Source: Candidatus Thorarchaeota archaeon (GTDB lineage Archaea > Asgardarchaeota > Thorarchaeia > Thorarchaeales > Thorarchaeaceae). Taken from it: 64,000 nucleotides of DNA. Position 1 is the stretch's first letter; every line of letters begins with the position of its first letter. Positions 28,695 to 52,740 of this stretch are shown here, in pieces. The stretch is taken from NCBI GenBank assembly GCA_048882325.1, contig JBHLRS010000009.1:32001-96000 (forward strand). The letters run 5' to 3'. Under the pieces are notes generated by a model. The model had not been told where the DNA came from. It did not search any database and worked only from the letters and a program-made list of their open reading frames with translations. The translations under genes and the position numbers were made by a program.

Positions 28695-28787
28695 TTACTT
28701 TCGGTAACCTCCCCTTTTATCATACATTTAATCGTACGCTCCGCAAATGCTTTTAAGGTGCCTCAGCGAAATTGCATTTGGACTGTC

Positions 28788-29999
28788 ATGCCGCACGACT
28801 ATGTTGAAGATGAACTCAGTAGGCGTAGTGTCTTCAAATCTGAACAATTCCTATCGATAGACTATGTGCCAGAGAGTCTTCCCCATCGACAGTCCGAGAT
28901 TAGAACACTTGTTCAAAGTTTCAAGACTTTGATCAGTTCACCGGGGCGCACTAGTCACAAGTTCATCATTGAAGGTCCTGTGGGAACAGGGAAGACAGCG
29001 GTGGCTAAGCGGTTTTCTGAACAGATGATTCAAGCTGCAAAGCGGAGAAATATCAGACTCCACAGTATCCATATTAACTGCCGTGTTAACAAGACCGCAT
29101 ATCTCGTTTTTCTTAGAGCTCTAAGGGAGTTCAAACCGAAATTTCCTAGACGTGGTCATTCTCCTGACGAGTTACTACAGATGCTAGTTGAAGTCCTTGA
29201 TGAGGAGGATCGCTATCTCCTTCTGATTCTTGACGAACTTGATTACTTCATTAGGCAAAGGGGATCAGACATTCTCTATGACCTCACAAGACTAATGGAT
29301 GACCGACTAAATGCCACACAGCGCCTCTCAATAATAGGAATTGGTCGTAAGATTCCTCTTGATGATGAAATTCTGGATTCTAGTACACGTAGTACGCTCC
29401 AGCGTAATGTCCTCCGTTTCTCGAGGTATAATCGCGATGCGCTTTCTGACATCCTCACCGACCGTGTAGATATGGCATTTGAGAGTAAGGCAGTCATGGA
29501 TGAAACGATTCAAGTAATCTGTGATATTGCAGCTGAACATGGTGATGCACGATATGCAATTGAACTCCTCTGGCGTGCAGGAAAACGTGCAGATCGTGAC
29601 CGAGTAGATGTTGTAATTCCTGACTATGCCCGTCGTGCAAAAGCTGACACACATCCAGAACTCAGAAAAGAGATTTTTGCTGCATTGCCAACACAACACA
29701 AACTTCTGCTCCTAGCTGCAGCAAGACAGCTTAGGGAAATTCGTAGTGCCTATGTCACCATAGGCGAAGTCGAAGAGATGTATCGTACAATTTGTGAAGA
29801 GTATTATGAAGAACCTAGAGCTCATACTCAGATTTGGGAATGGGTACAAGATCTTCACTCTCATGGTATAATTGATACGAAAAAATCAGGGACAGGACAA
29901 AGAGGACAGACAACTCTCATAGGCTTTTCAGACGTTCCAGCTGAGATGTTGGAGCAATTTCTCTCAGGATTACTTGATACATCTAAGGAGGCTGTGTGA
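28788..29999 (+). CDS. cdc6: Orc1/Cdc6 replication initiator
   Basis: DYVPESLPHR, GPVGTGKT, HINC, ILDELD, GDARYAI, C-terminal winged helix. Confidence 0.95.
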   Translation: MPHDYVEDELSRRSVFKSEQFLSIDYVPESLPHRQSEIRTLVQSFKTLISSPGRTSHKFIIEGPVGTGKTAVAKRFSEQMIQAAKRRNIRLHSIHINCRVNKTAYLVFLRALREFKPKFPRRGHSPDELLQMLVEVLDEEDRYLLLILDELDYFIRQRGSDILYDLTRLMDDRLNATQRLSIIGIGRKIPLDDEILDSSTRSTLQRNVLRFSRYNRDALSDILTDRVDMAFESKAVMDETIQVICDIAAEHGDARYAIELLWRAGKRADRDRVDVVIPDYARRAKADTHPELRKEIFAALPTQHKLLLLAAARQLREIRSAYVTIGEVEEMYRTICEEYYEEPRAHTQIWEWVQDLHSHGIIDTKKSGTGQRGQTTLIGFSDVPAEMLEQFLSGLLDTSKEAV

Positions 30000-30290: not shown

Positions 30291-31180
30291 GAGGGTTCCA
30301 GAATATGGTTAGCTATCTCTCTCGCCTATTCTATCTTGGTGACAACTATTATGGCTCACAATACCAACCAGGACTTACCACTGTCCAAGGAGAACTAATT
30401 GATGCACTTTCAGATTGGAGTGGAGAGCATCATTCCACCCAAACAGTTCAGATCTCCGGTAGAACCGACAGAGGAGTTCACAGTATTGGTCAGTTAGTGA
30501 TGGTGTCCACGGAAAAACAGTTCAATATTGACAAAATAAATCGGTACCTCCCTGATGACATCATATTATGGGCTTTTACAGTTGCACCTTCTAATTTCGT
30601 GCCTCGCTATGATGTATTGATGCGACACTATCGATACTATCTTGATCAATCTTGGTCACAGGTGAATCTGACATCTGTTAAGAAGGCTGTATCACTTCTT
30701 GTTGGGTCAAATGATTTCAATCGCCTTGCAAAACCTGATGGTGATAGAAACACAGTCACAACAATTCTGAATATATCAATACATGAATTCAACGGATCAT
30801 ACTTTTTAGATATCTTTGGAACTCGATTTCTTTGGAAACTCATTCGTAAAATGATCACTCTGCTCACAGAAATTGGCAAAGAAAGAATCAGACTTGATGC
30901 AATTAATGACATTCTCTCAGGAAAACGAGTTCTTGCAAGTGGCGTTCAGCCAGCACCTCCAGAGAATTTGGTTCTTATGGAATCAGTTGTACCAATTAGG
31001 ATGACGACAAGCAAAAACGCAGTCAGACTAATTCGAACTATGTTGGCGGATCAACTTGGTAGATATAGACGCGCAATTACGACAATCGAAAATGTCAGTG
31101 GTTTCTTTTCTGAACCAAAGATGACTTTTCAACATTCAACCAAGCAGCAAAATCACTCAGACTCTTTGGATTTATCTTGA
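30287..31180 (+). CDS. truA: tRNA pseudouridine(38-40) synthase
   Basis: GSQYQP..TVQG, GRTDRGVH, RHYRY, FLWKLIR; ATGA overlap with the upstream stop. Confidence 0.9.
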   Translation: MRGFQNMVSYLSRLFYLGDNYYGSQYQPGLTTVQGELIDALSDWSGEHHSTQTVQISGRTDRGVHSIGQLVMVSTEKQFNIDKINRYLPDDIILWAFTVAPSNFVPRYDVLMRHYRYYLDQSWSQVNLTSVKKAVSLLVGSNDFNRLAKPDGDRNTVTTILNISIHEFNGSYFLDIFGTRFLWKLIRKMITLLTEIGKERIRLDAINDILSGKRVLASGVQPAPPENLVLMESVVPIRMTTSKNAVRLIRTMLADQLGRYRRAITTIENVSGFFSEPKMTFQHSTKQQNHSDSLDLS

Positions 31181-32315
31181 TAATCTCATGAATAACATCA
31201 AGATGAGTACTTCTTACTCTCCTTTTTGAAACTCCTGTGAGAGAAGATAGGGCGCTACGAACCTCAGACTGTTTGTCGCGTTTTCTATTCCCTTGCCAAA
31301 CTAATAATGGCCATGTGGGTTGTGAATACTTAACTCGCCGGAATGGTGATTCAGATCGACTCATTGCCACTCCCAGTGAAAGGAAATCGTAAAAGTATGC
31401 AAGAAGTTTCCAGTTCTGGTCTCTCATAATTCTTCCAAGCGTCATATCAGCAAGAGAGAGCTGTTCAAACCCCTCATCCAGTTCTTTTGGAGTTAAAAGA
31501 TGAAGATGAAGGTTCTCTTCTAGCCATAGCACCAATGAATCGTGGTTAAGCTCAGATTCAGATACTGCTCTTTTTGCCATTTTAGAATCAGCTGATGCAA
31601 ACAGATGCCAGAGTGTTTCTTCTGTTCCTCTTTTTGAATCTCTAAAGACTGTCTCTATTGCTGAAGATGTCAAACCACTTCTTACATGTGACTCCAAATC
31701 AGAGATTGCAGCACGCAGGTCACCTCCAGAACCTTCGATAATCTCATCCAGAACGTCACTTGAAACATCCGCCTTGTTTTCAGATAATATGCGTTTCAAG
31801 ACCTTTTCCATGTCGTCGTTATCGATAAGACCGAAATTGAAGACTTGACATACCTTCATCAAGTCCTTGAGACGTGGACTGTTCGGATCATTTGCAGTCA
31901 TCACAATCGGATGAACTGTATCTTTGATCACCTTCAAGATTGCACCAACGCCACCTCTGTCGCTAGTCCCAGAGAGACCATCAACTTCATCAAGCAGTAT
32001 AATTCGTGGTCTGCCATCAAGAGTTTGTTGAGATACGGCTCGCCAAACAAGTGTTTCAATACTATCCTTGTTCCTTTTATCACTCGAATTGAATTCTACA
32101 AGTTCCATATTCATTTCATTTGCTAATGCGCCTACTGACGCTGTCTTTCCTGTTCCTGGAGGACCAATTAGGAGTGCTGCTCTCTTACTCGGTATCTGTG
32201 ATGACCATGATTTAACCCATGTTTTGAGTGATGTCAGAGTTTCTTGATTTCCAACAAGACTGTCCGTTTTTTTCGGACGATGTTTCTCGGGCCAAGGTAG
32301 ACTTTCGTTGGTCAT
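31095..32315 (-). CDS. rfcL: replication factor C large subunit
   Basis: PWPEKHRP, GPPGTGKT, EFNSSDKR, LDEVD, GDLRAAI. Confidence 0.93.
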   Translation of the reverse strand: MTNESLPWPEKHRPKKTDSLVGNQETLTSLKTWVKSWSSQIPSKRAALLIGPPGTGKTASVGALANEMNMELVEFNSSDKRNKDSIETLVWRAVSQQTLDGRPRIILLDEVDGLSGTSDRGGVGAILKVIKDTVHPIVMTANDPNSPRLKDLMKVCQVFNFGLIDNDDMEKVLKRILSENKADVSSDVLDEIIEGSGGDLRAAISDLESHVRSGLTSSAIETVFRDSKRGTEETLWHLFASADSKMAKRAVSESELNHDSLVLWLEENLHLHLLTPKELDEGFEQLSLADMTLGRIMRDQNWKLLAYFYDFLSLGVAMSRSESPFRRVKYSQPTWPLLVWQGNRKRDKQSEVRSALSSLTGVSKRRVRSTHLDVIHEIIKINPKSLSDFAAWLNVEKSSLVQKRNH

Positions 32316-44157: not shown

Positions 44158-44627
44158 GCTTTCACATCTTGTTCATATTTACATTAATTCACACATAGTT
44201 TGTGTGAATGGCGCCTTTATTGTGAACACTCCGGGAGAAACGGGCCTCTTATTGCCTTAATAACAGAATGAAGGCATGATATGTTCTATGATACCTGTGA
44301 ATGGACACACCCCTTCGTTTCCTGTGGAAACAAGAAAGAAGACATATGAAATGGTTACATCCTCATTCACAAGAATCATAGATTAGTGAATGGTGAACAG
44401 GCTGGAGAATACCGTGTTTTCAGTGAAAAAAGCGTTCATATTGCTCTTTTATGGTCAAGAAGACCTGACAGGACGTCAGCACAGCAAAAACGAAGCGGAC
44501 GAGTTCTATATGTGTACAGACACACTATGTAGCTCTTATCACTGTATACATAATTCACATACTCACACTTATTTGGAATTTGACTCTACTTCATTGTGAA
44601 TAGTCAATAGTATCGGAGAGAATTGGT
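44158..44627. repeat. array of GTGAA/TTCAC motifs with one ORB-like element
   Basis: 11 exact GTGAA/TTCAC copies counted by eye; ORB-like GTTTCCACAGGAAACGAAGGGGT on the minus strand at 44331-44309. Confidence 0.7.
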
Positions 44628-45257
44628 TTGACAAGTGAAGACAGGACTAACTATGTGTATGAGTTCACATACAGTTCCGCACCAGGTCTTCGTGAAATAT
44701 TCCAGTGTAAATATGTCAGACCAGATGAAGCACTTAACAGGTTCAGAAAGATCCTCGCACTAACCGAGTCTCCTTTTGATTTCAAGATTATAGTTTCTGA
44801 TGAAACGATGGGTGAAGAATCTAGTTTTCAAGTGAAGGGTGGTAGTATAGAGGAGATGTTCGTCAAGTTCAAGGTTTTTCTAGAAACTAGTACAGGCTTT
44901 GTCTTTAAGCCTATCAGTGAAGAGGCCGCAGAGGTCGGGATGGAAGACATCCGATTTGAGTCTATGAGCAATTATGACAAGATGCAGGTGATAATTTACG
45001 CTTCTTTCAAACATGGAAAGTTCTCCTCCCTTGATGTCACTGAGATTTATCAGGACTCGTTCAACGAGGATTTGCCAAAGAGTACGGCATCTACCTACTT
45101 GGCCAGAATGTGGAATAATGGAAAGGGTCACCTGGAACGTTATGGAAACCGCTCTGGTTACACATATCGTCTCAGAACAGAGATTGCAGAAGTTCAGAAA
45201 GAAACAGAAAGAGCTGAAGAACTTCTCGCCGCGATACAGATGAGAGTAAGAGATTGA
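44628..45257 (+). CDS. winged-helix DNA-binding protein
   Basis: C-terminal FSSLDV..IY...LPKSTASTYLARM...LER.G...YTYRL; GGAG RBS with a TTG start. Confidence 0.72.
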   Translation: MTSEDRTNYVYEFTYSSAPGLREIFQCKYVRPDEALNRFRKILALTESPFDFKIIVSDETMGEESSFQVKGGSIEEMFVKFKVFLETSTGFVFKPISEEAAEVGMEDIRFESMSNYDKMQVIIYASFKHGKFSSLDVTEIYQDSFNEDLPKSTASTYLARMWNNGKGHLERYGNRSGYTYRLRTEIAEVQKETERAEELLAAIQMRVRD

Positions 45258-45297: not shown

Positions 45298-46614
45298 TTA
45301 TAGGTCAAATATCTTCTCATCCAACTTAATATCTAGCGTTTCAAGTTCTTCGAGAATTGGTTCATAGATTTCAGGGATAATAGGTCTATGAACACCAGTC
45401 AAAGCAATCTTCCCCTCAAGGATCATTTTGCTGGCGATTGCAACTGGGAGAGCTACAGTCCTGGACATCGAGCTATCCCCATTTGGAATGCCGTAATCAA
45501 TGAGAGTCGAAGTGATTTTCTGTTTCTTGTCAGGATACTCAGCTATGAACTCGTGATGCATGACTATCATGTCGCGTTCTCCTGGTGCATACTGTAATTT
45601 TTCTTCGAAAAGGTTACACAGAGCATCAAGAACTGTGCTGATTCCTGAAGGAATCTCATTGTCTTCAAACAGGCCTAGCCATTCTAAGCGTGTGATAATT
45701 TGATCACTTGGATCAAGACCACAGGCCTTGGCAACTGCAGACTTCACATCAGAATCACTTGTCGATGTTAATTCACGCATTAGACCAGCATATGTCATTC
45801 CAGCAAAGGATCTTTCTTCTATATCGAGAAGACCCAAGTCTGCAATCTTGTCAAGCGTTCCACACCATCCGACATTCCTGAATGTACCACGAAGCATTGT
45901 GTCTGTTTCAGGGATATTGTAGATGTCTATGTAGGAAAGACTATCTCGATTTGGATATCCTTCAAAAGTACCCATTCCAGGGACTTCCATCAGCTCACAG
46001 TTTTCAAATAGCTCAGGGCCAGGAATCCTAACTTCTTTTCCATCACGCAAGAAATGTGCATCATTGCGTCCTGCCAAGAGAACCCCCCTGGGACTCCAAG
46101 AGAGTTTGTATCCGTATGGATTATTGTTCGCATCTGGAGCAGGAAGACCCCCCGTGAATGAAGTGAAGCTTACAATCTTTCCACTGTTATTGTGGACATC
46201 ATCAATGATTTTCATAGCACTCATATGGTCGATACCTGGATCGACTCCACATTCGTTTAAAAGAAGTATACCAGCATTCTTTGCATCATCTTCGAGTGCT
46301 TTCATTTCATCCGAGATATAGGATGTTGTGCAGAAGTGGGTCCTGTGTTTGATTGCTACTCTGGCAGCCCTGACATGGTATGTGTAAGGCAATAAAGAAC
46401 AAACAAGATCTGCCTTCTCTGTAAGCTCTTCAAGGAGCTCGTAATCTTCTGCAATGTTGAAGGCTACTGCCTCTGCATTCTTGCAGCCCTCAATTAGACG
46501 TTCGGCTTTGCTTATAGTACGGCTCGCAACAATGACATGAAAACCATTGTCTGAGAGATATTGGATGTATGGACGGGCGACTAAGCCTGCGCCCAGACAC
46601 ACTATTTTCTTCAT
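45298..46614 (-). CDS. saccharopine dehydrogenase (Lys9 / AASS SDH domain-like)
   Basis: LGAGLV, SLLPY, E.G.DPGIDHM, GGLPAP..NNP.GYK.SWSP, YPNRDS. Confidence 0.92.
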   Translation of the reverse strand: MKKIVCLGAGLVARPYIQYLSDNGFHVIVASRTISKAERLIEGCKNAEAVAFNIAEDYELLEELTEKADLVCSLLPYTYHVRAARVAIKHRTHFCTTSYISDEMKALEDDAKNAGILLLNECGVDPGIDHMSAMKIIDDVHNNSGKIVSFTSFTGGLPAPDANNNPYGYKLSWSPRGVLLAGRNDAHFLRDGKEVRIPGPELFENCELMEVPGMGTFEGYPNRDSLSYIDIYNIPETDTMLRGTFRNVGWCGTLDKIADLGLLDIEERSFAGMTYAGLMRELTSTSDSDVKSAVAKACGLDPSDQIITRLEWLGLFEDNEIPSGISTVLDALCNLFEEKLQYAPGERDMIVMHHEFIAEYPDKKQKITSTLIDYGIPNGDSSMSRTVALPVAIASKMILEGKIALTGVHRPIIPEIYEPILEELETLDIKLDEKIFDL

Positions 46615-46625
46615 TTGTTGTCCTC

Positions 46626-47918
46626 CTATTGGATATATTGAGTGAGATATTGATAGTTCTCTGTTAGTTTACCTTGGTATACGATAATGGCGTCTTTGAG
46701 CTCTCGGGGTAGATTGAGTTCTGTGAACTTAACAGTAAAGTCAGCCTTTGCTAAAGCCGGAATGAAATCAAGGAGTGTTTCACTGAATGACATAGATGAT
46801 TCACGTGGAAGCTCGGCTGGTAGATTGTCAACTGCCATCACGACTGGACCATCGCCTATGACACCTAGTTTGGCTTGGTCCTCATCAACTATGTAGGTGA
46901 ATGCTGGTTTGTCTGGTTTTGTACAGTTTAGAGTGAACTCAATTGCACCTTGTATGTCACAGGATATGTCTCCTACAATCTGGAGTCTTCGGGATTCTTG
47001 TTTCCAATGGTGCTGAATGAACTCCTTCGTTACTAAACGAGGATACTTGTCAGACCAATAAATGCAGTTCATCAACACAGTGATGTATGGAATGTATTTG
47101 TGGAATACTCCAACATACTTTGATTTTCCATTCTTGTAGTAGTCTTGGAGGTCAAACTGTTGAGAAGTATCTCGAGGTTCAACCATATGTTCCTCCTTGA
47201 AAACACACTTGTAGATTATTTCTGAATTAGGAGAAACATCTTCGATTTCTTCAGGATCAATATCCTTGTGTGGAAGAATATCGAATATCTCTTGAGCTCC
47301 CCTTGACACGTTGCCATAACCAGCGAAGCCAATCACAAATGGGTTGATTTCCTTTGGAAGCCCTTGTTCTTTAATTCGTTTACCAAGAGCAGCGAACTCC
47401 TGTTTTACTTGTTCGACTCCTCCAAGTTCAAGTGTTGGTTTCATCTCCGCAAATGGATTTGGTTTTATGCCTAGACTCTCTAGGCGTTTACCAAGCATGC
47501 GAAATGTGTTGGATATCCCAGCCATGCCGGCCCAGTTTCCAAAGAATATTAATCTTCGACCTTTTTCATCAACGACTCGTTCATAGTCAATCAATGTCGC
47601 TCCAATATCCAAGATCCGTTTGAGCATGGGCATATTGTAATCCTGACCTTTGATAGTATGACTAAAGAATACGTAGACAATATTCTTCTCGAAGAAATCA
47701 ATTGGCATCTCCTTGATACCCAGTACCACTGGTGTGTTGGTACCTTTTAATGGTAAAACATCTGCTTGATACTCGTCTTCCTTGAAAGCGCGCTGATTGC
47801 TTGGTTCGATCACAAATTCAATGCCATATCTGTCATGTAACAGCTTTGCATGATCAGGTACAACTGGAACTCGGGTTTCGTATGCTTTCTCCTCTTTTCT
47901 AAGACCAATCCGGTTCAT
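46626..47918 (-). CDS. lysine-ketoglutarate reductase (AASS LKR domain-like)
   Basis: FFSHTIKGQ.YNM, LIDYE, GYGNVSRGAQE, DISCD, VDNLPAELP. Confidence 0.9.
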   Translation of the reverse strand: MNRIGLRKEEKAYETRVPVVPDHAKLLHDRYGIEFVIEPSNQRAFKEDEYQADVLPLKGTNTPVVLGIKEMPIDFFEKNIVYVFFSHTIKGQDYNMPMLKRILDIGATLIDYERVVDEKGRRLIFFGNWAGMAGISNTFRMLGKRLESLGIKPNPFAEMKPTLELGGVEQVKQEFAALGKRIKEQGLPKEINPFVIGFAGYGNVSRGAQEIFDILPHKDIDPEEIEDVSPNSEIIYKCVFKEEHMVEPRDTSQQFDLQDYYKNGKSKYVGVFHKYIPYITVLMNCIYWSDKYPRLVTKEFIQHHWKQESRRLQIVGDISCDIQGAIEFTLNCTKPDKPAFTYIVDEDQAKLGVIGDGPVVMAVDNLPAELPRESSMSFSETLLDFIPALAKADFTVKFTELNLPRELKDAIIVYQGKLTENYQYLTQYIQ

Positions 47919-48032: not shown

Positions 48033-48733
48033 AGAACACGTGTTCTTCAAAGTGTTGATTCACATGACTTCGTACTTGTATCTGTATGACTGTCAACATG
48101 CTAGACGAACTAACGCAAGACGTGTAGCATTCACGAAGGAGCTCTATGGATACTATTACACTTGGAGAACAAAGTCTGGAGTCAAACAGAAACGTCGACA
48201 AGGTCTCTTAGACGAGTGTCCAGGTTCTGAAGCTGTTGCAGATTCAGCCATCCTTGTTCCTTCCGAACATCGAATAGTTTTTGATACACTGTTCAGGACG
48301 TATGATGATATTCTCAAGTTGAAGATCTTCGAGGTTGTCCAAGAGATAGAGTGATGTGTGAATCTTCGAACACGTGTTCTAATATTTATTACATGTATTA
48401 CAATTGATAATCTTCTGGATCTCACTCTTTCATTTCCACTGGAACTCTTTCTTGTGTCACTTATTTCCACTGGAACACGTGTTCTACAAACAATTGGACC
48501 CCCTTGTTTCCACTAGAGATTATTAACAACTATCTAATCGGTTAAATATCAAAAAATATATATAATCGTTTAAAGAGCTGACTTTTATCTCCATTTTTTT
48601 AATGCATAATAATACCCGCTGCAAAGATTCTCCATAAGATCTCTCGAGTGGAAGCCAAGGGGTCTTATCCAGACACTATTTTAAAGAATACAGGGACGTG
48701 ACGAGCGTAATATTCACTAGAACACGTGTTCCA
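48033..48733. repeat. four copies of the palindrome GAACACGTGTTC
   Basis: At 48034, 48368, 48473 and 48720; 48471-48486 and 48718-48733 form a perfect 16-bp inverted repeat. Confidence 0.9.
48064..48354 (+). CDS. small Cas2/VapD-like ferredoxin-fold protein (tentative)
   Basis: 96 aa; YLYLYD...RRVAF.KELYG...DSAILVP; bracketed by palindromes. Confidence 0.5.
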   Translation: MTSYLYLYDCQHARRTNARRVAFTKELYGYYYTWRTKSGVKQKRRQGLLDECPGSEAVADSAILVPSEHRIVFDTLFRTYDDILKLKIFEVVQEIE

Positions 48734-48800
48734 AATGTAAAAATCACTTTGTCCAGTACCACAAAACTGATACAGTTCGCATATTTCCACCCGAAATACC
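48355..48800. other. probable chromosomal replication origin (oriC)
   Basis: TTTCCACTGGAAC at 48433 and 48464; inverted G-string ORBs at 48498-48519 (-) and 48642-48663 (+) flank an AT-rich tract at 48520-48613. Confidence 0.82.
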
Positions 48801-51343: not shown

Positions 51344-52622
51344 CTACCAGTCAATCAGATTCCCTGCAGCAACTGCAACCTGACCAATAGAAATCCCTCC
51401 ATCACCTAGAGGAACATCTCTGTGGATAAGGGGTATGAGATCATCTCTACTGACGTGATTTACCACAGCTCGTGTGATGATTCTGTTAAGTGCAACACCA
51501 CCAGAGAAACCAACATGCTGAACCTGATTCTCTTTAGCCACCTTACACGCAATATATGCCAAAGCTTCTCCCAAGTACCACTGTGCAGCATAGGCTATCT
51601 CATGTTCGCTAACACATTGTTCCTTTAACTCATGGACCTGCATCAAACCATGTGAGGTATCCAAGTTCAGTCCATCCCTTGATTTTATGAATCTAGGCTT
51701 GATCTGTTTCTTAGTAGGTTTCGCAAAAGCCTCGAGCTTCATAGGACATTCTCTATCATAGGAATTCATTGAACTTATTCCGAGAACTATAGCTACAGCA
51801 TCAAGGAACCTTCCAGCGCTTGTACTGTTCATCACACCAATCTGACGATTGATTGAATCAATTAGAATACTCAATATGTCAGATGTAATTCGGGTATCAG
51901 GCGCGATAGGCACTGATTCAATAACTCTGAGGAGGAGGTCATTTCTCTCTAGTGAGTTACCCAAATAGCTATTCAGAATCCCAATCGCAGACCTGGCAGC
52001 AAAAACAGCAGAGAGATCTCCACTTGGATAATCTACACCTTTAAGACCGCCAACTTTCTTGAAGTCTCTTAGACCACCAATCAATACTTCTTCTCCCCAT
52101 CCGTTACTGTCCATGCCAAACCCATACTCGTCAACTGTAATACAAACAATACTTGTATCACATAGCAATTTGCGGTCCACATGCTGCACATGAGGTGAAT
52201 GGGTAACGATACCATCGTGACTTTGAGTCTGTTAAGTCATGAATACAATAAACACACATTGCAATGTCTGACTGTAAAACAGGAATCGCTCCCTCTGTTC
52301 TCTTGTCCGAAGACATCTGTATCTCGAAGAATGTGAAGGAATCCGTGACATCTGTCCAATCAACGGTCAATGAATCAATGCGCGATATTGATGGAGGATT
52401 GTTCTTTATACTTTCAATCAGATCATTGATTCCTGTTTCTTCTCCTTCTGCTACAATCTTTACTCCTGCATCATCCAAGTTGAGAACAAATCCAGTGAGT
52501 GAGAACGAATCAGCAACATTGTAGACAAATGGTCTAAATCCAACTCCTTGGACTATCCCTGCTACATGAATCTCAGCTCTTTTCCTCACTGGCCATGACA
52601 CCTTTGATTTTTCCGTGATCAT
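51344..52622 (-). pseudogene. hypF: hypF carbamoyltransferase pseudogene (two out-of-frame fragments, large internal deletion)
   Basis: GIVQGVGFRPFV plus the first Zn finger ends at CAACGPQ. The second fragment has a degenerate DG.G.G.DG..WGGE motif, then TSAGRFLDA, SGGV, GDGGISIGQ. Confidence 0.85.
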
Positions 52623-52740
52623 TTCCGATATTAATTCGTTGAAGTGGCTGAACCTATCCTGTATTACAAGAAATACCAGTACCATGCCTGCTCTTTGTAG
52701 GTCCTCTTAAGGTCCATGTAGGAAAAAGGTTTGAGCTGCT

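Follow-up and report, generated by a model that had tools for sequence, protein, structure and literature searches.

The window, by which we mean the whole 64,000-nt stretch of DNA that was analysed, carries between 48.0 and 48.8 kb a compact group of ORB-type boxes around an AT-rich duplex-unwinding element (DUE), together with a gene for a 96-aa protein (the small gene) and four copies of one palindrome (Table 1). A lone ORB, a cluster of short repeats and a gene for a 209-aa protein lie a few kilobases away, and one cdc6 gene lies elsewhere in the window. Positions refer to the window; those prefixed "C9:" are coordinates on contig C9, which carries it.

Table 1. Coordinates of the features at and around the ORB/DUE region
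Feature	Position	Strand	Remarks
Window cdc6 (Cdc6-2)	28758-29999		Pfam Cdc6_C, Cdc6_lid, AAA; 18.5 kb from left ORB
TGTGAAT / GTGAA repeat cluster	44161-44601	no strand	surrounds lone ORB
Lone full ORB + G-string TTTCCACAGGAAACGAAGGGGT	44309-44330	-	4.2 kb from core; matrix 26.3, third in genome
209-aa gene	44628-45257	+	second origin-linked gene; no Pfam match
Palindrome 1 GAACACGTGTTC	48034-48045		18 nt ahead of start codon of small gene
96-aa gene (small gene)	48064-48354	+	ferredoxin-like or Cas2-like fold predicted; conserved, origin-linked
Palindrome 2 GAACACGTGTTC	48368-48379		13 nt past stop of small gene; left end of segment inverted in other species
Mini-ORB GTTCCAGTGGAAA	48433-48445	-	beside the full ORB pair
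Mini-ORB GTTCCAGTGGAAA	48464-48476	-	shares 4 nt with palindrome 3
Palindrome 3 GAACACGTGTTC	48473-48484		13 nt outward of left ORB
Left full ORB TCTCTAGTGGAAACAAGGGGGT	48498-48519	-	G-string faces away from DUE; matrix 35.9 of possible 36.9, top in genome
AT-rich DUE	48520-48641	no strand	122 bp between inverted ORBs, 73.8% AT
Right full ORB TCTCGAGTGGAAGCCAAGGGGT	48642-48663	+	G-string faces away from DUE; matrix 32.7, second in genome
Palindrome 4 GAACACGTGTTC	48720-48731		56 nt outward of right ORB; right end of invertible segment
cdc6-1	C9:16521-17768		same contig, beyond window; 63 kb from origin

An earlier reading made from the letters of the window (the sequence-only reading) had described four ORB and mini-ORB sequences here, with an AT-rich tract between the inverted boxes and G-strings pointing away from it. 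All four sequences were found at those positions and on those strands, the G-strings of both full ORBs point outward, and the intervening tract is as AT-rich as claimed. The genome mean is 55.6% AT against the value tabulated for the DUE, and equally AT-rich 122-nt windows make up 0.044% of the assembly. The G-strings at the full ORBs are short (GGGG or GGGGG), and diverging genes flank the region. The mini-ORB core with its next base, TTCCAGTGGAAAT, is the reverse complement of the core of the P. furiosus ORB1/ORB2 oligonucleotides, which are bound by purified Pyrococcus Cdc6 (PMC1904270). An Rfam search of the region gave no match. The sequence-only reading was right to take the DNA as Asgard, for near-identical proteins carry the name Candidatus Thorarchaeota.

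The 3.6-Mb assembly, which is 93% complete, was scanned with a 22-nt ORB matrix whose training set, 40 boxes, came only from 20 other species. The top four matches genome-wide (35.9, 32.7, 26.3 and 22.2 bits) begin at window positions 48498, 48642, 44309 and 48424, all within 4.4 kb; the next match scored 17.5 bits, and no second ORB cluster was found above that value elsewhere in the assembly. The exact core TCCAGTGGAAA occurs three times in the 3.6 Mb, two of these copies being in the ORB/DUE region. An inverted pair of near-ORB boxes on another contig (C34) was considered as a second origin and rejected, because the surrounding DNA is of ordinary composition and G-strings are absent.

The ORB/DUE region is present in 19 of 24 genomes of the genus. 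Across 19 species, mean column identity is 0.89 for the left and 0.87 for the right full ORB and 0.98 and 1.00 for palindromes 3 and 4, with the DUE at 0.72 and the spacers at 0.59-0.68. The DUE measures 125-127 bp in 17 of the 19, with an AT content of 0.65-0.75, and the mini-ORBs occur in only part of the genus. The ORB module was likewise conserved at all of the more distant Asgard loci examined. At 18 loci belonging to other genera and families, an ortholog of the small gene always adjoins ORB boxes with outward G-strings, and most of these loci have an inverted ORB pair spaced 140-240 bp. Across at least seven Asgard families the module is syntenic with the housekeeping genes iorAB, hypF, cdc6-1 and DP1.

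The lone ORB has counterparts in eight other genera of the family, where a full ORB lies at a like distance, about 3.7 kb from the small gene. Exact TGTGAAT occurs six times in 415 bp of the surrounding repeat cluster, compared with about 0.12 copies expected from the window rate, and in a related locus (L033) the DNA separating cdc6 from the small gene is filled with the TGTGAAT/GTGAA motif. Relatives of the 209-aa protein are encoded at two other loci: in L033 by the gene that stands between cdc6 and the small gene (41% identity, E 2e-27), and in the Jordarchaeales locus L037 (37% identity, E 1e-12). The C-terminal part of the 209-aa protein reads like a winged helix.

The two cdc6 genes

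An origin next to orc1/cdc6 is usual for the oriC1 class, but not obligatory, and this adjacency is the usual criterion of origin predictors. Here the ORB/DUE region lies 18.5 kb from one cdc6 paralog and 63 kb from the ortholog of the gene that is origin-linked in relatives. The sequence-only reading had noted the nearer gene, at about 18 kb and with no ORB upstream, and this proved correct: the 400 bp upstream of the window cdc6 contain no ORB or mini-ORB at up to two mismatches, and a tRNA-Gly gene sits there. It had also called the locus uncoupled from cdc6. That is true of this genome and of the Thor family as a whole, but the distance had been taken to the wrong gene, a paralog of about 30% identity.

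The gene that matters is probably cdc6-1, whose family score is 417 bits versus 299 bits for the window cdc6. The origin-adjacent Cdc6 proteins of relatives share 53-61% identity with Cdc6-1, against 30-31% with the product of the window gene; by sequence identity, Cdc6-1 is the true ortholog of the origin-linked Cdc6, and the window cdc6 is not. In this genome cdc6-1 has kept its pairing with PolD-DP1. Its promoter carries mini-ORB-like sites, which 15 of 17 family genomes have at 40-105 bp ahead of the gene.

Outside the Thor family, the boxes and the small gene are found at 0.4-2.2 kb from the cdc6-1 ortholog and DP1, and for the ORB pair of Jordarchaeales and at least four further Asgard families the distance to cdc6 and DP1 is 0.5-2 kb; adjacency to cdc6 was seen at the orthologous loci of nine non-Thor Asgard genomes, and one locus of the same order (L045) keeps DP1, cdc6, ORBs, small gene, iorA and hypF all together. 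Among 25 Thor-family genomes with origin and cdc6-1 on one contig, the two are 58 kb to 1 Mb apart, with a median of about 64 kb. The retention of the ORB pair beside cdc6 and DP1 in the other families indicates that the split is, on this comparative evidence, an old rearrangement specific to the Thor lineage, inside a conserved block of about 64 kb, and not another design of origin. The ancestral state would have had the origin beside cdc6-1 and PolD-DP1, as other Asgard families retain it, and the separation of origin from cdc6-1/DP1, by some 64 kb, would have come about by rearrangement in the common ancestor of the Thor family.

The small gene and the palindromes

The frame of the small gene is open in all 21 genus loci, with 69-91% amino acid identity. 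The gene is single-copy and was identified in 93 of 400 Asgard genomes; no ortholog was found outside Asgard. Around it, annotation shows saccharopine-dehydrogenase-like genes together with iorAB and hypF in this genome; in other families the neighbours are cdc6 and DP1. The AF2 model of the protein has a pLDDT of 85, and the N-terminal half has a pI of 10.2. The homodimer model scored 0.53 versus 0.31 for the best control; three runs shared at least 94% of contacts, with a partner pLDDT of at least 86, and the modelled partners pair via the C-terminal strand. Known homodimers reached the mark for dimer scores in 20 of 30 cases and monomers in 1 of 23, counts which are only rough because our own alignment was used.

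A resemblance to Cas2 was seen at the level of predicted structure. The modelled protein is small, with a ferredoxin-like beta-alpha-beta-beta fold and a dimer formed via edge strands, and a near-invariant Tyr-Asp closes strand 1. Foldseek matched the model to B. halodurans Cas2 (4es3) with probability 0.99, TM 0.53/0.59 and E 0.06, and nothing was returned at E<=0.001. With VIA-align, Z was 6.5 to 3exc and 6.2 to 1zpw (24% identity), scores that sit in the range of many common ferredoxin-like matches (Z up to 7.9, all below 8). The best match of a PDB profile search was also Cas2, at a non-significant E of 0.53. A Cas2 family member would be expected to show a significant sequence-profile match and a genomic association with cas1 and a CRISPR array; the 96-aa protein has no such match, and the annotated neighbours of its gene include no cas gene. 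Pfam searches with 21 members of the small-protein family gave nothing better than E 0.02, the Cas2 profile PF09827 found nothing in this genome at E<=0.01, and no cas genes were found near the small gene in gene tables or in searches of this and related loci. Unlike Cas2, the protein has no significant Cas2 Pfam match, and its genomic partner is the origin.

Perfect copies of GAACACGTGTTC number four in the window, compared with 0.14 expected, and eight in the genome. A palindrome regulon was considered and rejected; the other four copies have no link to replication genes, being near a C25 peptidase gene, an HdrA-like oxidoreductase gene and a 116-aa ORF, with one inside a coding region. The palindrome ahead of the small gene is present in all genus loci and in most of the distant loci. 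A 14-nt form of it occurs in 84 of 85 Thor-family genomes, usually at 2-10 sites (a reversed control pattern gave about 0); in the largest family lacking the small gene, 9 of 135 genomes have it. One family (f3) has the small gene and ORB pair with no strict palindrome, and another (f5) has single palindromes and no small gene; as statistics, this co-occurrence is weak because the families are few and related.

Palindrome 4 pairs with palindromes 3 and 2 as inverted repeats, perfect over 16 nt and imperfect over 28 nt. In nine of the genus genomes compared, the segment bounded by palindromes 2 and 4 has the opposite orientation with respect to the small gene, so that the core cassette has been inverted between species. 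The stretch is present in 21 sequencing runs; contigs from four of them show one orientation each and no strand-changing joints, as seen in contigs, in which minority forms are invisible. One run contained low-support joints that skip between palindrome edges (48045/48047 to 48473), perhaps originating from related organisms. Recombination between the palindrome-bearing inverted repeats may have flipped the cassette during evolution of the genus.

Origin reading and its alternatives

We consider the region at 48.0-48.8 kb very probably to be a chromosomal replication origin of the ORB/DUE (oriC1) type. At least two inverted boxes of ORB consensus, here two full ORBs and two mini-ORBs, and an AT-rich DUE between inverted ORBs are features of that class, and both are found at the locus. 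The anatomy, the uniqueness within the genome, the conservation and, most of all, the synteny argue well for the archaeal ORB/DUE origin that the sequence-only reading had proposed. Some archaea (Haloferax and Thermococcus) live without using their ORB origins (PMC5663688, PMC4010727), and sequence conservation is therefore no proof of use.

By analogy with Sulfolobus oriC1 and Pyrococcus oriC, we infer that the two inverted full ORBs are occupied by Orc1/Cdc6 monomers, most likely Cdc6-1 from its gene 63 kb away, and that the origin fires from here. The winged-helix domain would contact the DUE-proximal ORB core and the AAA+ domain the outer G-string, after which MCM would be loaded by the bound initiators at the AT-rich DUE of 122 bp. 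Added cooperative or regulatory binding might come from the mini-ORBs and from the lone ORB at 44.3 kb.

For the palindromes we infer a dimeric DNA-binding protein with the four GAACACGTGTTC copies as its operators. The best candidate is the 96-aa product, which would regulate itself and bracket the core as an origin-accessory factor; we put this at somewhat short of an even chance. A broader proposal is more tentative, and possible rather than probable: that in part of Asgard (Thor, Jord and four or more further families) there is a dedicated accessory system, one described in no other archaeon, in which a single-copy Cas2-like dimer of about 96 aa sits on 12-14-bp GAACAYRTGTTC palindromes around the core and its own gene and licenses or insulates initiation, or acts as a nuclease, with the winged-helix-like protein and the GTGAAT array as a second conserved origin-linked pair. 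The nuclease role is suggested because the Cas2-type Tyr-Asp is kept at the end of strand 1.

Strand composition gave a mixed picture. The cumulative keto curve of contig C9 peaks at C9:80465, coincident with the ORBs, and the cumulative GC, AT and purine minima lie at C9:65.4 kb, away from them. Keto sums per 10 kb flip sign in most of the 20 largest contigs, with noise equal to the signal at the ORB site. In a closed 1.42-Mb relative, sampled as 41 stretches, the orthologous locus coincides with a local AT/purine sign change only; the global skew extremes are elsewhere, close to 0 and at about 1.03 Mb, and the keto polarity is the reverse of that in this genome.

The lack of a clean origin signal in the skew is one of several observations that would suit a different role, in which the ORBs are Orc1/Cdc6 operators controlling the small gene and iorAB, or a dormant relic origin, and replication starts elsewhere or by recombination. 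Orc1 paralogs of Sulfolobales (Orc1-2) serve as regulators of transcription (PMC12490963, PMC9738581), origins that are dormant or dispensable occur in some archaea (PMC4595724, PMC5663688), the mini-ORB-like sites of the cdc6-1 promoter look regulatory, and the ORB region does sit between diverging genes. We regard such a role as unlikely. A simple operator has no need of the full layout, an inverted pair with outward G-strings and a fixed spacer, about 126 bp long and some 70% AT, which is kept across families; a relic would not keep a box identity of 0.87-0.89 while the spacers fall to 0.59; and the 93%-complete assembly offers no other ORB cluster as the real origin.

The inversion of the palindrome 2-to-4 segment in nine genus genomes, together with the inverted repeats of 16-28 nt at the cassette ends, could also be taken to mean that the cassette is a phase-variation switch flipped by a site-specific recombinase, with only incidental ORB-like boxes. 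This is very improbable: the ORB content is far above chance, a recombinase gene is absent nearby, and the cassette interior is symmetric and has no promoter-gene pair that flipping would affect. Each contig from the four runs has a single orientation, even if contigs hide minority forms, and rare homologous recombination between the inverted repeats accounts for the flips between species. Least probable of all, in our view, is that the module was brought in as the origin of an integrated plasmid or virus and is not the ancestral chromosomal origin. Sulfolobus oriC3 with whiP is accepted to have arisen by such a capture (PMC4010727), and the locus does have uncharacterised small genes of its own and a conserved winged-helix-like gene 3 kb off. 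The module is, against this, single-copy and syntenic with iorAB, hypF, cdc6-1 and DP1 in the seven or more families, it has no flanking integrase, tRNA target or direct repeats, and its likely cognate Cdc6 is the conserved, best-scoring chromosomal paralog.

Comparison with known origins

Taken as a chromosomal origin, the Thor locus shares with oriC1 of Sulfolobus/Saccharolobus (ORB3-DUE-ORB2, Orc1-1) two inverted ORBs around an AT-rich DUE, further ORB-type sites close by and an additional conserved short motif. Sulfolobus oriC1 is directly upstream of orc1-1, whereas the likely initiator gene here is 63 kb off. With the oriC of Pyrococcus and other Thermococcales it shares mini-ORBs of about 13 bp mixed with longer ORBs that carry a G-run, and an identical mini-ORB core. 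Thermococcales keep origin, cdc6 and dp1 together, with a second ORB cluster within dp1, and this neighbourhood is the one that non-Thor Asgard loci keep; in the Thor family, by contrast, the origin is parted from cdc6-dp1, and the flanking palindromes have no counterpart in Thermococcales. In haloarchaeal oriC1, as here, a G-string ends each ORB and inverted ORBs enclose an AT-rich region (PMC4010727). The haloarchaeal origins differ in being all cdc6-adjacent and in having an extended G-string, compared with the short one here, and no palindrome bracket is described for them.

Our literature search found no published description of a Thorarchaeota origin module, and no sequence-defined Asgard replication origin was found in the searchable literature; in one closed Asgard chromosome the origin was placed by skew alone (PMC9246712). 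The locus is a short, conserved, sequence-defined candidate origin with a named candidate initiator, Cdc6-1, which opens the way to binding, MCM-loading and marker-frequency experiments. The rule that an origin lies next to cdc6 fails for the whole family of 85 sampled genomes, and cdc6-anchored origin predictors will therefore miss or misplace the origin there.

The closest parallel to the palindromes and the 96-aa protein is the ucm motif of Sulfolobus, bound by UBP, a basic, dimeric protein of 111 aa whose C-terminal beta strand is strand-swapped (Dhanaraju et al. 2025, PMC12141716). In the dimer model, the 96-aa protein likewise joins via its C-terminal strand. The ucm motif lies within the DUE and is non-palindromic, whereas the Thor motif is a perfect 12-bp palindrome located outside the ORBs and also around the gene. 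UBP has been reported by its authors only from Sulfolobales and Desulfurococcales (PMC12141716), and PDB sequence searches with two small-protein profiles returned no UBP chain at E<=10. With the motif outside the ORB pair and no UBP match in those searches, the palindromes are not assigned to the ucm/UBP system, and the likeness would be one of functional analogy only. The authors of the UBP study asked whether analogous origin-acting proteins exist in other archaeal lineages (PMC12141716); the bracketing palindromes and the origin-linked small gene described here are a concrete candidate answer.

Anatomy and rarity of the ORB/DUE core

The sequence-only reading of this DNA had proposed a replication origin formed by two inverted origin recognition boxes (ORBs) and two mini-ORB cores. 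On re-checking, the sequences and coordinates of these boxes were matched exactly, and the inverted ORB pair, with G-strings directed outward from an AT-rich tract, the putative duplex-unwinding element (DUE), was confirmed. The assembly has a mean AT content of 55.6%, and 0.044% of all windows of equal length in the whole assembly are as AT-rich as the DUE. Extended by its next base (TTCCAGTGGAAAT), the mini-ORB core matches, in reverse complement, the core of the P. furiosus ORB1 and ORB2 oligonucleotides, which were bound by purified Cdc6 (PMC1904270).

Features of the origin locus and related sites on contig C9 (window positions unless marked C9)
Feature	Position	Strand	Remarks
Mini-ORB-like sites TTCCAGTCGAA, GTCCACTGGAA, TTCTAATGGAA	C9:16400-16465 (L031, outside window)		60-105 bp upstream of cdc6-1
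cdc6-1	C9:16521-17768		beyond window
cdc6 paralog	28758-29999		
Lone full ORB with G-string	44309-44330		third-best matrix match, 26.3 bits
209-aa gene	44628-45257		C-terminal part reads like winged helix
Palindrome GAACACGTGTTC, perfect, 4 copies	48034, 48368, 48473, 48720		
Small gene (96 codons)	48064-48354		
Mini-ORBs, 13 nt, GTTCCAGTGGAAA (n=2)	48433 and 48464	-	
Full ORB (left)	48498-48519	-	outer end G-string, pointing away from AT-rich tract
DUE	48520-48641		between ORBs; 73.8% AT
Full ORB (right)	48642-48663	+	outer end G-string, pointing away from AT-rich tract

The rarity of these boxes was assessed in the 3.6-Mb assembly (89 contigs, 93% complete), of which the window covers C9:32001-96000. 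The exact core TCCAGTGGAAA occurs three times assembly-wide, two of them at the origin locus. A 22-nt ORB matrix, trained on 40 ORBs from 20 other species, was used to scan both strands; the top four matches (35.9, 32.7, 26.3 and 22.2 bits) were located at window positions 48498, 48642, 44309 and 48424, respectively, the fifth scored 17.5 bits, and no second ORB cluster was found in the assembled sequence. The locus is very probably a replication origin, and its ORB/DUE layout is of a known kind. Elsewhere, on contig C20 (5620-5770; L030:2620-2775), an ORB-like box TCTCCATCGGAAATGAAGGGGA of 17.1 bits precedes an AT-rich stretch of ~90 bp and a single perfect palindrome AGAACACGTGTTCT; this site resembles one half of an origin, or else a promoter under regulation.

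Separation of the probable origin from its putative initiator gene

The genome carries two Orc1/Cdc6 genes, both on C9. The paralog within the window ends 18.5 kb from the ORBs, and the earlier claim that it lacks an upstream ORB was borne out, a mini-ORB also being absent there. The second gene, cdc6-1, lies 63 kb from the ORBs and is convergent with the gene for the PolD small subunit DP1. Loci in other Asgard lineages, among them one named Candidatus Jordarchaeales, were reached by way of remoter homologs of the small gene. There the gene and an inverted pair of ORBs are located 0.4-2.2 kb from a Cdc6 and DP1, the same classical archaeal oriC neighbourhood as in Pyrococcus, where the origin also lies by Cdc6 and DP1. 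These origin-adjacent Cdc6 proteins are 53-61% identical to Cdc6-1, but only 30-31% identical to the window's paralog, which is not the gene relevant to the origin. The proposed uncoupling from cdc6 thus holds for the putative initiator gene, whereas the cdc6 at 18 kb, on which it had been based, was the wrong one. An intact arrangement is retained in a locus from another family of the same order (L045), in the order DP1, cdc6, ORB, small gene, palindrome, DUE and ORB, palindrome, iorA, hypF. In the window, hypF (51344-52685) looks split into a 281-aa ORF (HypF_C_2) and a 175-aa ORF (acylphosphatase and zf-HYPF) overlapping by 32 nt; relatives carry one undivided gene (772-782 aa), in which Sua5 and HypF_C domains lie between these parts.

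The host's family, here called the Thor family, was sampled with 85 genomes; in none of the nine loci examined was the cdc6-1/DP1 pair less than 10 kb from the origin. The distance between cdc6-1 and the origin, in the 25 genomes with both on one contig, was 58-79 kb in 21, 129-157 kb in three and 1.02 Mb in one (median ~64 kb). Synteny, orthology and these family distances therefore indicate that the origin was parted from its putative initiator gene by an old rearrangement at the level of the family, within a block that is itself conserved. The exceptional gap was found in G370, on a single contig of 2.58 Mb (C1) with cdc6-1 at 783 kb and the small gene and ORBs at 1,808 kb; the other 24 genomes span 58-157 kb, and either the contig was mis-scaffolded or the chromosome has undergone a large rearrangement. 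A gene for an RFC/Rad17-like AAA+ clamp-loader subunit (31098-32315) follows ~1 kb past the end of the cdc6 paralog, so that the 64 kb separating cdc6-1 from the origin contain several replication genes.

Of 17 Thor-family genomes, 15 carry mini-ORB-like sites 40-105 bp upstream of the cdc6-1 start. These sites probably act as operators through which Cdc6 regulates its own gene, or else survive from the former flank of the origin. A textbook origin layout was observed in a closed 1.42-Mb Asgard genome (G026 C1:622354-624350; L040), in the order small gene, ORB, DUE of ~190 bp, ORB; cdc6 and DP1 follow at a distance of 1.5 kb. Across this chromosome skew reaches its global extremes near 0 and ~1.03 Mb, and an origin call based on skew would therefore overlook the locus. 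Strand skew was uninformative in these genomes.

The palindrome-bracketed cassette and the small gene

Four perfect palindromes occur in the window against 0.14 expected (eight in the whole assembly), the first two flanking the small gene and the last two the ORB-DUE-ORB core. Matches to the intergenic region of 902 bp were obtained in 19 of the 24 genus genomes (66-79% identity), and all 20 retrieved genus loci share the order palindrome, small ORF, palindrome, palindrome-flanked cassette. When the cassettes of 19 species were aligned in a common orientation, mean column identity was 0.98-1.00 in the palindromes, 0.87-0.89 in the ORBs, 0.72 in the DUE and 0.59-0.68 in the spacers; DUE length was 125-127 bp in 17 of the 19, with 65-75% AT in all. 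Such a profile reads as the footprint of putative protein-bound boxes, with a spacer between them that is under constraint for both its length and its composition. The segment between palindromes 2 and 4 (48368-48731) is inverted relative to the small gene in nine of the genus genomes compared (L018-L025, L027), and the inversion ends coincide with palindrome-containing inverted repeats, a perfect one of 16 nt and another of 28 nt. Contigs (not reads) from four runs each showed one cassette orientation, and the flips are most simply read as rare recombination events at the repeats as species diverged.

The 96-codon ORF is a real gene, open in 21/21 genus loci at 69-91% amino-acid identity. It is single-copy in 93 of 400 Asgard genomes, including 71 of 85 in the Thor family and all sampled members of three other families, and absent from the 135 of the largest family. 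Near-identical copies of its protein are filed in public records as Candidatus Thorarchaeota archaeon, and the Asgard assignment of this DNA holds. Relatives number 14 among 1.84 billion representative proteins, and no Pfam family was found. An AlphaFold model (pLDDT 85) has a ferredoxin-like fold, with Cas2 among its better structural matches (4es3, TM 0.53/0.59; 3exc and 1zpw, Z 6.2-6.5). Since unrelated ferredoxin-like folds match as highly, and the best PDB sequence match, a Cas2, has an E value of 0.53, the protein is described as resembling Cas2 in its fold alone. With a pI of 10.2, the N-terminal half of the small protein is strongly basic. A homodimer model passed its controls (0.53 versus 0.31 for the best control), with at least 94% of contacts shared by three runs and pLDDT of at least 86; 20 of 30 known homodimers and one of 23 monomers attained the same mark, figures that apply roughly here since an alignment of our own was used.

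A 14-nt form of the palindrome was present in 84 of 85 Thor-family genomes, in 9 of 135 of the large family without the small gene, and at ~19 sites per genome in one other family possessing the gene; a reversed control pattern was near zero. Family f3 has the small gene and ORBs with no strict palindrome, and f5 often has one palindrome with no detectable small gene. Given this co-occurrence, and a palindrome just before the start codon in every genus locus, the small protein is the best candidate for the palindrome binder, an assignment that is circumstantial and made tentatively.

The lone ORB lies ~3.7 kb from the small gene, and a full ORB is found at this same distance in eight further Thor-family genera. 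Around it, six copies of TGTGAAT occur in 415 bp against ~0.12 expected, and the stretch 44158-45257 comprises a TGTGAAT/GTGAA array with the embedded ORB ahead of the 209-aa gene. The C-terminal part of this gene's product is conserved in two other lineages, in the product of the gene that separates cdc6 from the small gene there (E 2e-27 and 1e-12). Array and gene may represent a second origin-linked pair of putative DNA-binding protein and site; two saccharopine-dehydrogenase-like genes (45298-47918) separate this block from the core.

Comparison with known origins

An origin of the ORB/DUE kind is new for Asgard archaea; our literature search found no paper on an Asgard ORB-type origin, these palindromes or the small gene, and in one closed Asgard chromosome the origin was picked from skew curves alone (PMC9246712). 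Two features are unusual, namely the relocation of the putative initiator gene by ~64 kb across the whole Thor family and the conserved bracket of palindromes and small gene, which is without a described counterpart. Among published systems, the nearest analogue is found at Sulfolobus oriC1, where the ucm motif is bound by UBP, a small dimeric protein (PMC12141716); the present system differs from it in motif position, motif symmetry and protein sequence.
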